The notes under the pieces: generated by a model
Told to the model about the DNA's origin: nothing
Databases searched by the model: none
What the model saw: the letters and a program-made list of their open reading frames with translations, nothing else
Part shown: piece after piece, positions 24,730-29,243 of the stretch
How positions within the stretch are numbered: the stretch's first letter is position 1
Layout: each line of letters opens with the position of its first letter
Sequence record: NC_019717.1
Length of the DNA stretch: 45,366 nt
Source of the DNA: Enterobacteria phage HK225
Strand: one strand, 5' to 3'
Position numbers and translations under genes: made by a program

Positions 24730-25842
24730 TCAGGCCACGTATTCCGGTTTCATATCCGCCAGGGTGATGCTGAATTGATCGTGCAGTTCATCGCCTAAGT
24801 GACGCTTTGAAGATGCAAGCATGCGCTCGGCTTCAGCGAACCGTTCGGATGCATGCGGCTCGTCGGGCTGGGGCAGGGATTTAATAGCCTCCTCAACCTT
24901 GTTGCGTGCATCCACTAGGTAATAACGCTTTACGGCTTTGTTTTTCAGCTCGGTGAATAGTGCGGATCCCAGCGTAGCTTTCGCCGTTTCAATGTCGGCA
25001 CGCAGCGATTTGGCGCTATCCACGTCCTGAGCAGATTCGATGCGTTCGCGGAAATCATCGGCAAGAGAGTCGACATTTACCGACGATTCCTGTGCGCTTT
25101 GCGTGGTTGTGACGGTGTCACCTGAGATATCAGCCAGGCTAACGCGTTGCGGCGTTGGGTTGATCTCTTTTTCTGTGCGCTGTTCAATCTCATCAGGGGT
25201 GTACACACCAAGAACAACTGCAGGGCAATACAGGCGCGCCCAGTATTTGAGTGCCAGATAAGCGATCTGCTGTTTCGGGTTTGATACCCAAAGTGGAGAA
25301 TTACGTGTGATTACGCTGGAGAGGAAAACAGGCTCTCCCCAGGTGATATCACTTTCACCGCGAATAACGGCACCTACCCGTACCGACAGTCCTTGTTCAT
25401 CAGCACTTTCCCAACCGCGTACCATTTCTTTCTTGTCGTACGTCCCGCCACCTTTCGCAGGCTTTTTAACGGTTATCTCGCGGCTGCTGGCACATTTCGA
25501 CCAGTCGCCCTCGTACTCATAGTGAAAGCGGCCAACGATGGCGTTTGAGCTGGAGATCACCGCATTAACCAGTTGCGCTTCGTATCCCAGGACACCGTTA
25601 ACCAGGTGCGTCTTTTGCGCCACGGCGTAAGGGTTCATACCCCACTGCATCGCCTGCATGATGATGGCCATGCAGTCTGCCGGATTGCCGCGGAGGTGCT
25701 CAGGCACCGTTACGGCTGCCTGTGCCATCAACCCGGCGACAGACTGAAGCTGGGTTAAAGCCTGCACGTTGAAAATGGCATTGCTGGCTGAGATCGTGTT
25801 TGGAGTCTGCTGTTCAGCGGTTACGATATTCGTGTTTTCCAT
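24730..25842 (-). CDS. recT: RecT-family single-strand annealing protein
   Basis: track ORF has three consecutive Met; the third (25842) has the best SD spacing; core GNPADCMAIIMQAMQWGMNPY resembles RecT. Confidence 0.8.
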   Translation of the reverse strand: MENTNIVTAEQQTPNTISASNAIFNVQALTQLQSVAGLMAQAAVTVPEHLRGNPADCMAIIMQAMQWGMNPYAVAQKTHLVNGVLGYEAQLVNAVISSSNAIVGRFHYEYEGDWSKCASSREITVKKPAKGGGTYDKKEMVRGWESADEQGLSVRVGAVIRGESDITWGEPVFLSSVITRNSPLWVSNPKQQIAYLALKYWARLYCPAVVLGVYTPDEIEQRTEKEINPTPQRVSLADISGDTVTTTQSAQESSVNVDSLADDFRERIESAQDVDSAKSLRADIETAKATLGSALFTELKNKAVKRYYLVDARNKVEEAIKSLPQPDEPHASERFAEAERMLASSKRHLGDELHDQFSITLADMKPEYVA

Positions 25843-25853
25843 CATCATTCCCC

Positions 25854-28800
25854 TTATGCCTGAGTACGCAGCGCTTCAAGGCGGCGCAGGTCGAAGTCGT
25901 TCAGTTCGTCGGTGTAGTCAGCAGTGATTGGCGCTGGCCATTCACCTGTGTCGAATCCGGTTGCGATATTGCGCATCGCTTTGCGGTACTCGAGCATACC
26001 CAGCTCCAGTAGTTCAGCGGATGCCTCGATGATGGCGATCCAGTGGTAGTTCTCGTCTTTGTTGACGAAAATCCAGAAGAACTGATCCAGCGCTGCGGTT
26101 TCGCAGTACATAGCCGCGCTCAGGTGATAATCACGTTCAATAATTTCCCGGTGTAGCCTGGCGCGCAGGCTTTCCTGCTTAACATTCCACATGCTGATGG
26201 TTTTCAGGTCAGCACCGATACGCACGCCGTCTAGGTCGATCTCAAGGTCAGGGCGCACACGAACTTCCAGTCCCGTCTCCTCGTCAAAGCCAAAGTAGCT
26301 CACCTCAACGGCGCGGCTCGGGTGGGTTAGCAGCATGCCTGCGGTCGGGTGCGAGAGCAGTGCTGACTGAATTGCCTGCGCGGTGGCAAGTTGCTGGTGG
26401 GTAACCAGCACTTTCCCTTCCGGGTTGTTGCGCCACGCATCGAGCAGCTCGTCGGCGAACACTGCATCTGGTTTGACTGCCTTCACGGCCTGAATCAGAT
26501 CGGCCTTCGTGCCAGAGACTTTCAGCGGTTGCAGCTTCTGAGCTTCCTGCGCGACCAGGTCAGGATTGATAATCGCAAGTTGTTCGAGTAGTGCGTCGCG
26601 GCTGCCGCTGGTTTTAATCTGCGCTGGCAGGGTGGCGTTGTACTCTTTGATGCACGCCTTCATTGCTGTTGCTGTCTTCTTCTGATCTGCATCGATACGT
26701 TGGAATTCAGCTGGCAGCGCCATATAGTTCTGCGCCGTTTCATCCAGGCTAGCGCCCAGCGGCACCAGCGCTGGCAGGGTGGCGTTGTATTCATCCAGCA
26801 AAGCTTTGATATCGTCTGCGCTCAGTTGCGCTGGCAGGCTGGCGTTGTACTCATCAATAAACGCGCGGATCGTTGCCGTGGTGGTAAATGCACCTTCCGG
26901 AATTACGGGTTCAACGCTAAATTCTTCATCGAGCTGTTCTGGCTGCAACGCCAGCGCATGTACCAGGTTTCCCATGTCCAGCACTGAGGAGCGCTCTTTG
27001 ACGATGGTTTTCTCAACGTGGCGCGCATTGAAGTACATCAGCGAAACGCGCGCATCTTTTACCTGGGTGGAACTGATGCCGTTGGCAGCGTGGTAAACCT
27101 CGTTCGGCAGACCTTCATAGCGCCCAGGCTCGAAGTAATCGGGGTAAAAAACAGCTGGTTCGTCAGATTGCGCTTCTGGCTCGGTTTGTGCTGCAACTGG
27201 TTCGGTTTGGCTTACAGAATCGCTATTTTTGGCGACAGAATCCGTATTCTGGTTTACATCGTCCTTCTGGCTGGTATCTGACTCTTCACCAGACTCCAGA
27301 CTGCTTTCGCCTGGCTGTACTTCATCACCAACATTTTTTTCATCACTGACAGTTTCTTGAACCTGCACATTGCTGGTGGTTTCCGTAGCCTGTTTCGTGC
27401 CATGAGTTGCTGAGTTCTGCAGTAAAGCCGTAACGTCGAATATTCCGTTGCCGACATTTTTAACCAGTTCTTGTTCGACTTTCTGCGGTTGTGCTGCCGC
27501 TTCCTCTGCGCGGCGGCGTGCTCCTTCTTCACGCACGCGTTGCAGGTTCTCTTCGTGAGTGCAGAAGGATTTGCGCGGAGACTCCTTACCTTCAGGTTGG
27601 GGAATTTCCTGTGCTGCGGGTTCAGCCTCATGCAACGGCAATAACTCGACCGCGGAATTGAACGCGGCTGTCATGGTCTGGTTAACAAATTCCAGGTGAG
27701 CGACAGGAGTTAAATGAATATTTTCCGGTGCGATACGTACCAGGTTAAAAATAGCCGTGCGGTTAACACCCAGAACGCCTGGCTGATTGCGCAGGATGTT
27801 GCTCCATGATTTCCATGGTTCTTCTTTTTTGGTCACGATTTCTTTAGCGCGACGAAGAATGCTGCCCGGGATCTCGAAGTGGTTGAAGTCCATAGGCAGA
27901 AGGGCACACGCAATCTCTAAATCGAGAGTGTCCAGTGTGTGGTGTGCGTCAGGTCCACGGTCAGTGACGTAACCGCCGTCGGCATTAGTGCCGGAATCAG
28001 TACGCTGCACACTACTGATGCGATTACCGGCGGCCCATTCGCGAACGAGGATACCGCGGTCGATGTGATCTGTAGCGAACCACAATTTCAAAAACTGGAT
28101 TAAGGTTGCGAGTTCAGGGATTTTTCCATCGACAGGGAAGACTTTCTTAACGGCATTCACGACTTTATGAATATCGTGCTCAATGGCTTTTTTGAATGCT
28201 TCCACATTCTCAGCTGCCAGCAGCAGGTTCTGGACGTACGCGTCATCGGTGTCCATCTCAAGGCGGACAATCTCATTTTTCTGCCCTGCGTCGATGTGAT
28301 AGAGATATTCACCATCACCGATGAACTGAGCCAGTACGCGCTGGCGGAATGGCAGGGTGGCAACAACGATCAGGTTCGGTTGCTGTGTCTGCTGGGATTG
28401 CTCTTCGGTATCGACTTCACCATCAACGACGCCACCTTCTGCCCGGCCGTTCTCGTCGGTCTGGATACCGTCCTCAACAGTGAGATCTTGACCCGTTGTA
28501 ACGTCAGCAGCGTTGCTGGTTTCAGTTTTGAGCAACTGCAACTTACCACTGCGCCAGTCTTCTACCAGTTGATTGCGGTCACCGGCATCGGTGTTCACCC
28601 AGTCAGACATGAATGCAGCGATCAATCTTGGTTCGTGCTCTTCGTCTGGTGTGAAAATGTCCTTAACCGCCCGAATCATTTTCCACTCAGCATTCAGGCT
28701 GAGTTTGGCGGTCGCGGGCACATCGTTCCTTGCCACAAGCAGGCTATGGAGATATGTATTGCCTTCATCCAGTGACATTTCGCTGGCAGCCAACTGCTGC

Positions 28801-29243
28801 TCTTTAGTGACGTGGGTTTGGTATTTATCGTTCATCAGATGGACGGCAAAGCGGACCGCTGGAGTACGGTTTTCAACCGGGACAATTTCGGACGCAGTCG
28901 CATCTTCAACGATTACGGTCGGAGTAGGTGTGTAGGGGGCGTCAACGGAACCAGTAGACACACCAGCGGCTTTTGGCAGCCAGGTGCGCCCATCGTCCTG
29001 AAGCTCGTAGCGATCACACCAGGTAAAATCAACTTCACCTTCTTTCGGCAGGCCGTCGACAACTGGGAAATCAGTGCGAATCGGTTTGGCGTAGTCCTTA
29101 CCCCGACCTGTTTCGATACCTGCATCTTCCAGCGCAACATCCAGCATCAGATTGGCGCGAGCCTCGGTTTTAGCAGTGAACCAGACCACTGCATCTTGCT
29201 TTCCGGATTTCTGAGTGGCTTTAACCACATTAAAGAATTCCAT
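25854..29243 (-). CDS. recE: RecE-like exonuclease VIII with long N-terminal extension
   Basis: 1129-aa ORF with GAGGA SD, directly upstream of recT; acidic low-complexity middle; C-terminal region consistent with a RecE-type nuclease domain; internal triplicated EYNATLPA module. Confidence 0.7.
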   Translation of the reverse strand: MEFFNVVKATQKSGKQDAVVWFTAKTEARANLMLDVALEDAGIETGRGKDYAKPIRTDFPVVDGLPKEGEVDFTWCDRYELQDDGRTWLPKAAGVSTGSVDAPYTPTPTVIVEDATASEIVPVENRTPAVRFAVHLMNDKYQTHVTKEQQLAASEMSLDEGNTYLHSLLVARNDVPATAKLSLNAEWKMIRAVKDIFTPDEEHEPRLIAAFMSDWVNTDAGDRNQLVEDWRSGKLQLLKTETSNAADVTTGQDLTVEDGIQTDENGRAEGGVVDGEVDTEEQSQQTQQPNLIVVATLPFRQRVLAQFIGDGEYLYHIDAGQKNEIVRLEMDTDDAYVQNLLLAAENVEAFKKAIEHDIHKVVNAVKKVFPVDGKIPELATLIQFLKLWFATDHIDRGILVREWAAGNRISSVQRTDSGTNADGGYVTDRGPDAHHTLDTLDLEIACALLPMDFNHFEIPGSILRRAKEIVTKKEEPWKSWSNILRNQPGVLGVNRTAIFNLVRIAPENIHLTPVAHLEFVNQTMTAAFNSAVELLPLHEAEPAAQEIPQPEGKESPRKSFCTHEENLQRVREEGARRRAEEAAAQPQKVEQELVKNVGNGIFDVTALLQNSATHGTKQATETTSNVQVQETVSDEKNVGDEVQPGESSLESGEESDTSQKDDVNQNTDSVAKNSDSVSQTEPVAAQTEPEAQSDEPAVFYPDYFEPGRYEGLPNEVYHAANGISSTQVKDARVSLMYFNARHVEKTIVKERSSVLDMGNLVHALALQPEQLDEEFSVEPVIPEGAFTTTATIRAFIDEYNASLPAQLSADDIKALLDEYNATLPALVPLGASLDETAQNYMALPAEFQRIDADQKKTATAMKACIKEYNATLPAQIKTSGSRDALLEQLAIINPDLVAQEAQKLQPLKVSGTKADLIQAVKAVKPDAVFADELLDAWRNNPEGKVLVTHQQLATAQAIQSALLSHPTAGMLLTHPSRAVEVSYFGFDEETGLEVRVRPDLEIDLDGVRIGADLKTISMWNVKQESLRARLHREIIERDYHLSAAMYCETAALDQFFWIFVNKDENYHWIAIIEASAELLELGMLEYRKAMRNIATGFDTGEWPAPITADYTDELNDFDLRRLEALRTQA
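26621..26852 (-). repeat. three copies of a 25-bp repeat inside recE
   Basis: + strand GCGCTGGCAGG(G/C)TGGCGTTGTA(C/T)TC at 26621, 26768 and 26828. Confidence 0.85.

Follow-up and report, generated by a model that had tools for sequence, protein, structure and literature searches.

The RecE-type exonuclease of phage HK225 holds a predicted helical array, probably derived from SAP domains, within its nuclease domain

Results

The recE-recT locus

The DNA analysed (hereafter the window) is a stretch of 45,366 nucleotides of the lambdoid Enterobacteria phage HK225 (NC_019717.1). The features of its recE-recT region are listed in Table 1. The recE-family ORF opens with an ATG, its product is 100% identical to the annotated protein 'exonuclease VII [Enterobacteria phage HK225]', and it matches PHROG exonuclease families (phrog_607, 1264 bits) as well as Pfam Exonuc_VIII (PF06630; 111.7 bits for a cutoff of 25, E 5.4e-32). 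The recT partner starts 5 nt past the recE stop codon, immediately downstream. Pfam, PHROG and a structural match to 3H4R by Foldseek all agree with the RecE/RecT module proposed by the first-pass annotation, and the ORF is a RecE-type recombination exonuclease, an ordinary member of its family. It was also already known as a protein of a sequenced phage, and both its length and its repeat layout are typical of its subfamily. The NCBIfam equivalog model of K-12 exonuclease VIII (NF007259) gave 520.7 bits, below its cutoff of 1269; HK225 RecE is thus of the RecE family, but of a distinct subfamily, and no equivalog of the K-12 enzyme.

Table 1. Features of the recE-recT region of HK225 (positions in the window; residues of RecE)
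Feature	Residues	Positions	Strand	Evidence or remark
recT partner gene, 372 aa		24730..25848	-	Pfam RecT PF03837, 125.5 bits; phrog_561, E 7e-165
recE-family gene, 1129 aa		25854..29243	-	ORF call; phrog_607; identity with annotated protein
PD-(D/E)XK nuclease, C-terminal half	943-1129	25857..26417	-	Pfam PF12684 DUF3799; Asp999, Asp1012-Leu-Lys1014
Helical insert, 162 residues	781-942	26418..26903	-	split alignments to 3H4R and K-12 RecE; AF2
DNA repeat copy 3, EYNATLPA	867-874	26622..26645	-
147-bp (49-aa) unit between repeat copies 2 and 3		26643..26789	-	deleted or duplicated in some alleles
DNA repeat copy 2, EYNATLPA	818-825	26769..26792	-
DNA repeat copy 1, EYNASLPA	798-805	26829..26852	-
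PD-(D/E)XK nuclease, N-terminal half	703-780	26904..27137	-	aligned to 3H4R 5-124; includes His762
Variable linker	541-702	27138..27623	-	second half acidic, low-complexity; 21-bp tandem repeat
Conserved RecE middle region	297-540	27624..28355	-	phrog_6528 over 248-498; domain copy 2 at ~309-417
Extra block	103-296	28356..28937	-	~105-aa helical domain copy 1 (~126-234) and acidic linker (~241-296)
Canonical RecE N-terminal segment	4-102	28938..29234	-	Pfam PF06630, profile positions 6-99 of 203

Protein length and architecture of the N-terminal and middle regions

The protein had been described as unusually long beside K-12 RecE, which does have 866 aa. HK225 RecE is indeed the longer of the two, but among its close relatives no length is commoner than 1129 aa: of the 120 protein clusters closest to it, 56 have exactly this length, in a family whose members range roughly from 750 to 1340 aa (969 aa for mEp237 RecE). 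An assembly or annotation artefact behind the long ORF was ruled out, because 56 independent clusters share the identical length. Compared with K-12 and mEp237 RecE, the extra length comes from two features, the block at about residues 103-296 and the insert of the nuclease domain.

The extra block splits the Exonuc_VIII match, of which the second stretch begins at about residue 297 (profile positions 143-203). The N-terminal 300 residues or so had been taken for a possible additional domain; an addition is present, limited to the block, and a free-standing domain of 300 aa was rejected because the first 100 residues are canonical RecE. The ~105-aa domain of the block and the next domain downstream are 29% identical over 104 aa (E 1e-11), the former being a diverged paralogous duplicate of the latter; K-12 RecE has one copy of this domain where HK225 RecE has two. 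In the alignment the block is missing from the mEp237, Gifsy-1, Klebsiella, Rac-SA53 and Aeromonas homologues and is present in PHB10 and several E. coli prophages. A faint match to PF27432 (YdfE_C) lies within the block, between both Exonuc_VIII matches. Further along, residues 357-525 align by BLASTP with residues 182-351 of K-12 RecE at 33% identity, and the following linker varies strongly in length and sequence among aligned homologues. The acidic, low-complexity middle noticed earlier is visible in the composition as two acidic stretches of low hydrophobicity (~241-300 and ~621-700), the second of which holds the 21-bp tandem repeat (27206-27248).

The nuclease domain and its insert

Pfam DUF3799 matches residues 944-1104 with 43.3 bits for a cutoff of 26, and phmmer relates HK225 RecE to 3H4R with E 2.2e-4. 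The AF2 model of residues 690-1129 has a pLDDT of 91.5, and its best Foldseek match in the PDB is again RecE (3H4R; E 9.4e-10, TM 0.60 on target); a Foldseek search of viral predicted structures (BFVD) gave no significant match, the best having E 0.12. All 35 sequences of alignment A1, which reaches down to 23% identity, have His762, Asp999, Asp1012 and Lys1014 (columns H73, D310, D323 and K325). The catalytic Asp and Asp-x-Lys align with RCRPD...DVK of 3H4R, and His762 corresponds to His652 of RecE (PMC11611040, sect. 2.3). By sequence and model, the domain has the RecE fold and a complete catalytic set.

The alignments to 3H4R and to K-12 RecE break at residues 781-942. This insert occupies the site of the K-12 loops 665-698, which are long and disordered, protrude at the rim around the tetramer's central channel and are thought to capture dsDNA (PMC11611040). 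Pfam run on the whole protein found no domain for the insert, and AF2 predicts it as an ordered array of eight helices (pLDDT 91). Three helices end in EYNA(T/S)LP (A1-A3) and are followed by two helices with K-x-S-G-(S/T)-(R/K) (B1 and B2); according to the model, each EYNA(T/S)LPA motif caps one of three helices of the array at its C-terminal end and begins the loop that follows. Both the triplicated motif and the three DNA repeats of the first-pass annotation are real, but the module is no free-standing unit: it is part of the insert within the nuclease domain. The 24-mer GAGTACAACGCCACCCTGCCAGCG has three minus-strand copies with 0-1 mismatch each, and none of 100 shuffles matched. One asparagine per motif copy (Asn800, Asn820 and Asn869) is invariant at the protein level.

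The residues that are invariant in the insert (Asn helix caps, Leu, Pro, Gly) are of a kind that suggests a structural role. The insert is net acidic, with 23 D+E for 15 K+R (-8), of which its first half (A1-A2) contributes -7; such a charge is unlike that of a simple DNA-binding surface and counts against a DNA-binding role. In relatives, the rim site measures 19-29 aa when there is no insert, 56-66 aa with one helix pair, 161-166 aa in the HK225 type and 212-217 aa where the insert is expanded. In other RecE-like proteins the same site is filled by an unrelated repeat family of ~45 aa, GKPENQSLKPSDK...W. The literature that we searched holds no experiment on the insert of the HK225-type RecE subfamily.

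SAP ancestry of the units

SAP domains are known to be combined with nucleases. A profile of the EYNATLP-KTSGSR (A3-B1) module aligned by hhalign with canonical SAP modules gave a probability of 94.2% and E 1.2e-7 over 35 columns, with YNATLP as a 6-residue loop insertion; the best PDB match of the module profile is the SAP domain of MKL1 (2KVU, E 0.0014), and SAP was matched by 13 of the 27 module sequences. The SAP signature of Gly and Lys/Arg is retained in B1 and B2. Two stand-alone relatives, P0244 and P0252, reach 37.9 and 34.0 bits with Pfam SAP (PF02037) at the rim site, above the cutoff of 23.9. In the HK225 insert itself the fourth unit scores 14.3-16.5 bits, below this cutoff, and units 1-3 give no match; this missing Pfam-level score in HK225's own units counts against the SAP explanation. 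By sequence comparison, the units of the insert are homologous to canonical SAP domains. The most likely origin of the array would be a single SAP domain (helix-extended loop-helix) at the rim site, multiplied by internal duplications; a single canonical SAP domain is still found there in distant relatives. A whole-word literature search returned no paper with both 'SAP domain' and 'RecE', and a 2023 structural review makes no mention of SAP.

The resemblance to the SAP domains of MKL1, the hnRNP-U-like E1B-AP5 (1ZRJ) and PIAS1 lies in a putative helix-extended loop-helix arrangement and in the Gly-(S/T)-(K/R)-x-x-L second helix; among SAP-bearing nucleases, FAN1 and the resolvase Ydc2/Cce1 (1KCF) can be compared. 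In contrast to SAP domains, the HK225 units are concatenated, share helices with their neighbours and sit as an insertion within a catalytic domain; they also differ by the YNA(T/S)LP loop insertion, scores below the Pfam threshold and a net acidic character.

Copy number of the repeat unit

Measured from the YHA motif to the C-terminus, the nuclease region exists in forms of 364, 413 or 462 aa. A length of 412-413 aa is shared by 106 of the 120 clusters and, among the phage and prophage relatives, by 10 of 11; the short form is found in 12 of the 120 clusters, and a deviating unit number in 2 of 59 complete E. coli genomes. The three-motif layout is kept across Escherichia, Salmonella, Klebsiella and Aeromonas phages. 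At the DNA level, the distance between common anchors is 375, 522 or 669 bp in near-identical alleles, whose junctions fall in a 27-nt perfect repeat: mEp237 and VREC0761 are standard, 730V1 has 147 bp less and CUWW10 147 bp more. The 364-aa and 413-aa forms are both present in each of two allele backgrounds. HK225's own allele type showed no unit-number variant (18 of 18 clusters standard).

Change of unit number by slippage or recombination is thus real but rare. Of the variable repeat number suggested earlier, what stands is the existence of in-frame -147 and +147 bp alleles; the variation is uncommon and three motifs are the family standard. The first-pass annotation had named a family-typical extension and a fixed copy number as the findings that would speak against its view, and this is largely what we observed. 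Gain or loss of one 49-residue unit occurs occasionally and in frame because identical repeats of 22-27 nt, 147 bp apart, bound the units, and unequal recombination or slippage between these repeats would be the process that removes or adds it. Copies 2 and 3 of the same genome have both synonymous and non-synonymous variants in common, a sign of their concerted evolution, and gene conversion probably keeps these two copies alike.

Discussion

We consider it probable that HK225 RecE is best explained by the combination of a SAP-derived array at the rim, with few changes of unit number, a duplicated N-region domain and a RecT partner. The protein would be a 5'->3' dsDNA exonuclease that forms with the RecT annealase a single-strand-annealing recombination pair. 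The SAP-like units may form a crown round the DNA entrance of the toroid and help to hold or orient the duplex end; capture of dsDNA by the array, like the tetramer geometry of HK225 RecE, is proposed by analogy, and the number of units may have a functional effect. The remaining extra length would come from the duplicated N-region domain and the acidic linkers.

The helical array could instead be a scaffold for docking or spacing of a protein (RecT, the N-terminal region of RecE itself or a host factor), with a SAP ancestry that is only historical and no binding of DNA. The acidity of the insert (-8, with -7 in the A1-A2 half), the structural look of its invariant residues and the absence of a SAP sequence signal in units 1-3 all favour such a scaffold, as does the GKPENQSLKPSDK...W family, whose presence means that the site tolerates arrays not obviously DNA-binding. 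However, the site is where K-12 RecE has its presumed DNA-capture loops, B1 and B2 keep the Gly and Lys/Arg signature of SAP, and distant relatives have bona fide SAP domains at this very place, and we regard a pure scaffold as unlikely. Far less probable still is a contingency locus, in which frequent adaptive switching of unit number would tune or switch RecE activity. The -147 and +147 bp alleles are in frame and lie in otherwise identical sequence, deletions occurred in two allele backgrounds, and a tenth of the clusters (12/120) have the short form. But deviation is confined to 2 of the 59 complete E. coli genomes, the three-motif layout is constant from Escherichia to Aeromonas phages, and HK225's allele type is invariant in its 18 clusters; moreover, it is general knowledge that short tandem repeats are a high-frequency slippage substrate, unlike repeats of 22-27 nt spaced by 147 bp.

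The presence of three near-identical 24-mers, none expected by chance, also raises the question whether they are cis-acting sites, such as signals for recombination or for the binding of a protein, located in the gene by coincidence. This reading was rejected, and we give it hardly any credence, because the genomes of Rac-SA53, the Klebsiella phage, PHB10 and the Aeromonas phage differ at synonymous positions of the repeats and yet encode a conserved peptide; the repeats are moreover in frame, and the Asn of each copy is invariant in the protein.

Returning to the SAP-derived array, a wider proposal is that the toroid rim of the RecE family is an evolvable insertion hot-spot, which receives copy-number-variable arrays, SAP-derived or of the unrelated ~45-aa repeat, and where unit number tunes the capture and holding of duplex ends. 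We put this forward as a tentative and rather doubtful possibility. If it were true, one would expect natural 2-, 3- and 4-unit alleles to show unequal processivity or unequal efficiency of linear-linear recombination, and the unit number of the rim array would be a handle for better RecET recombineering. RecE/RecT is the workhorse of recombineering, and to our knowledge its solved structure covers the K-12 nuclease core only, in which the DNA-capturing rim loops are disordered. In a subfamily that is large and widely distributed (Gifsy, mEp237, HK225 and many Enterobacterales prophages), a predicted ordered array, most likely SAP-derived, takes the place of these loops; this offers a testable hypothesis for the engagement of DNA ends, and the 2-, 3- and 4-unit alleles are variants at hand for a comparison. 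For the annotation of genomes, HK225 recE is an ordinary gene, and the structural insight is modest.

Comparison with known systems places these features. The exonuclease VIII of the K-12 Rac prophage has homologous Exonuc_VIII and middle regions (27-33% identity to HK225), the same PD-(D/E)XK fold and catalytic residues and the same recE-then-recT order, but its rim loop is a disordered segment of ~34 residues where HK225 has 162 residues predicted to be ordered. The RecE proteins of Gifsy-1, Gifsy-2, mEp237, SPN3UB, PHB10 and Klebsiella and Aeromonas prophages belong to the HK225 subfamily (53-76% identity overall), with the same 412-413-residue nuclease region, the three-motif insert and recT downstream, and differ from HK225 in the length of their linkers. 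Lambda Exo and YqaJ-type exonucleases share a related PD-(D/E)XK core and, like RecE, a 5'->3' resection that feeds an annealase, but are trimers of a single ~226-aa domain with neither N-terminal region nor rim insert (PMC11611040). Finally, the YdfE-type homologues of Stx and other lambdoid phages, described as RecE-2 (PMC12315714), have only the N-terminal and middle regions in common with HK225 (tblastn, residues 3-525); they are devoid of the nuclease domain and therefore of the insert.

Identity of the gene and of its partner

HK225 recE is an already known and annotated RecE-family member from a sequenced phage. Pfam detects Exonuc_VIII at the N-terminus of its product (111.7 bits) and DUF3799, the RecE-type PDDEXK domain, at the C-terminus (43.3 bits), and identifies the gene directly downstream as recT; PHROGs assignments concur for both genes. 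The RefSeq label for homologues, found in 96 complete E. coli genomes, is "RecE family exodeoxyribonuclease". The deposited product name of the HK225 protein (100% identical to the RecE analyzed here) and of mEp237 gp31 (locus L007) is "exonuclease VII". This seems to be an error for exonuclease VIII, as ExoVII is the unrelated XseAB enzyme. HK225 RecT itself exceeds K-12 RecT (269 aa, 810-bp CDS) by about 100 aa; the Pfam RecT profile spans just its residues 39-228, and an uncharacterised extension of about 140 aa remains at the C-terminus.

Coordinates of the features considered in HK225
Feature	Position	Strand	Remark
recE-family ORF	25854..29243	-	1129 aa; ORF listing
recT	24730-25848	-	372 aa
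Direct-repeat family	26620, 26767, 26827		repeat finder
21-bp tandem repeat	27206-27248		2 copies; in second acidic stretch (linker); encodes NTDSVAK/NSDSVSQ
Segment spanning the insert	26450-27050		601 bp
Chi GCTGGTGG	2110, 20368, 26393, 27372, 41526, 41968, 44522, 44811	+	8 in the window

A helical insert in the nuclease domain

The K-12 RecE nuclease structure (PDB 3H4R) aligns to HK225 RecE as two pieces, residues 715-837 and 942-1107, and the BLASTP alignment with full-length K-12 RecE is interrupted at the same place; residues 781-942 are thus an insert within the nuclease domain. Residues 690-1129 were modelled with AlphaFold2 at a mean pLDDT of 91.5 (35-sequence alignment), and the top PDB match of this model is RecE 3H4R (E 9.4e-10). 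His762, Asp999, Asp1012 and Lys1014 are invariant. The HK225 nuclease is of RecE type, its active site is intact, and its partner is RecT. The insert, whose position corresponds to residues 665-698 of K-12 RecE, was modelled with high confidence as eight helices, both in context and in isolation. In these predictions an ordered helical array occupies the position of the K-12 rim loop (PMC11611040).

The first-pass annotation had described the ORF, a triplicated motif with its DNA repeats, and an acidic middle; ORF listing, repeat search, shuffles and composition bear out this description. Three copies of the 24-mer GAGTACAACGCCACCCTGCCAGCG are present, each with 0-1 mismatch, against an expectation of none (0/100 shuffles), and each encodes EYNA(T/S)LPA, at residues 798, 818 and 867. 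The Asn of every EYN motif is invariant in 34 sequences; together with the Leu-Pro that follows, it looks like a helix-capping signature.

SAP ancestry of the array

The nuclease region was searched exhaustively against 1.84 billion representatives, which yielded 2837 relatives. Between its two conserved halves, segment lengths fall into discrete classes: 19-29 aa (K-12-like, without insert), 56-66 aa (a single helix pair), 161-166 aa (HK225 type) and 212-217 aa (additional units). The HK225 type extends down to 24% identity and includes stand-alone nucleases of 424-433 aa. One-pair inserts of stand-alone relatives are canonical SAP domains, scoring 37.9 bits in P0244 and 34.0 in P0252 against a Pfam cutoff of 23.9, and 13 of 27 module sequences sampled across the family match Pfam SAP. 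The top PDB match of the module profile is the MKL1 SAP domain (E 0.0014). Compared with canonical SAP modules, the profile of the EYNATLP...KTSGSR module gives 94% probability (E 1.2e-7), YNATLP being six extra residues in the loop between the helices. The units of the array therefore have SAP ancestry. HK225's own units score below the Pfam SAP threshold, so we speak of a SAP-derived or SAP-like array, not of several SAP domains.

By inference, HK225 RecE would form a RecE-like toroid, with four arrays crowning its DNA entrance and the B-type units (helices B1 and B2) contacting the duplex. In these units SAP helix 2 still starts with Gly-(S/T)-(K/R). The insert as a whole is net acidic (23 acidic vs 15 basic residues, with -7 in its first half), and part of the array may for this reason be a scaffold or protein-docking surface instead of a DNA-binding one. 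The enzymes of Gifsy-1/2, mEp237 and many further prophages share the architecture; in the literature searched we found no description of a SAP-like rim array and no paper with both "SAP domain" and "RecE".

In other RecE-like lineages an unrelated repeat of about 45 aa, GKPENQSLKPSDKVI...W, fills the same site, in one to four or more copies (inserts of 53, 97, 143, 156 and 188 aa in relatives P0175, P0205, P0178, P0203 and P0188). This makes the rim site a general hot-spot for insertions.

Gain and loss of units

Counted from the YHA motif to the end of the protein, 106 of 120 close clusters have 412-413 aa, as do 10 of 11 aligned phage and prophage relatives from Escherichia, Salmonella, Klebsiella and Aeromonas, so the three-motif layout is the family standard. 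The exception among the relatives is the E. coli prophage CUWW10 (462 aa); 12 clusters have 364 aa, and both forms are exactly 49 residues off 413. At the DNA level, near-identical allele backgrounds show anchor-to-anchor intervals of 375 bp (E. coli O19:H7 730V1), 522 bp (mEp237, VREC0761) and 669 bp (CUWW10). All remaining bases of the interval are identical and the junctions lie within a 27-nt perfect repeat, AAGAGTACAACGCCACCCTGCCGCCGC. Units are gained and lost modularly and in frame.

The first-pass annotation had proposed copy-number variation by slippage. The 147-bp alleles with junctions in the repeat make this right in kind, but the events are rare: of 59 region-carrying complete E. 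coli genomes, one has gained and one has lost 147 bp. Long and short forms occur together in two separate allele backgrounds; the deletion therefore arose at least twice or spread by recombination. Copies 2 and 3 have in common lineage-specific changes, synonymous and non-synonymous: LPP/CCGCCG in the mEp237 type, ACTCTGCCTGCT in GZ2408P and CCCGCC in a Klebsiella phage. At the sequence level, this sharing indicates gene conversion or repeated cycles of loss and gain.

Length, N-terminal block and linkers

HK225 RecE had also been singled out as unusually long. It exceeds textbook K-12 RecE (866 aa), yet 1129 aa is the commonest length of its own subfamily (56 of the 120 closest clusters, others 1015-1142 aa). 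Extension and repeat number are largely family-typical, with rare 147-bp variants. Phage relatives have 961 to 1074 aa, the CUWW10 prophage allele 1178 aa, and distant relatives up to 1341 aa. Aligned at full length, HK225 RecE differs from the mEp237 protein (969 aa) by a block, residues ~103-296, which interrupts Exonuc_VIII (profile 6-99 at residues 4-102, profile 143-203 from about residue 297). Within it, residues ~126-234 are a diverged duplicate of the domain at ~309-417 (29% identity, E 1e-11), and the latter part is an acidic linker. The suggested additional N-terminal domain is thus partly borne out, but canonical RecE sequence makes up the first 100 residues. Two stretches, residues ~241-300 and ~621-700, are acidic and of low hydrophobicity; the linker with the tandem repeat differs greatly in length and sequence across homologues.

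Mosaicism, decay and Chi sites

E. coli prophage alleles about 95% identical gene-wide are just about 83% identical over the segment spanning the insert, where 99-100% identity is found in another set of genomes; judging from these identities, recE is an intragenic mosaic. RecE of the Escherichia phage Rac-SA53 (L011, 486-3632; 1048 aa) matches K-12 RecE at 65% identity over residues 1-760 and at 29% in its C-terminal part, which bears an insert of the HK225 type, suggesting a hybrid of both kinds of nuclease. In Citrobacter sp. Cb014 (P0117, 1015 aa) the nuclease domain has lost its N-terminal half, His motif included, to a deletion that reaches from the linker as far as the first repeat unit and into it, so this protein is probably inactive. 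The E. coli EC09 locus (L004, 1001-3898), with recE reduced to two pseudogene fragments and recT frameshifted, is a case of module decay in a resident prophage. Two of the eight Chi sequences lie in recE. The expectation for both strands combined is about 2.0 +/- 1.5, and eight was reached in 0/100 shuffles; this richness resembles that of the Chi-rich lambdoid phages treated in PMC12315714.
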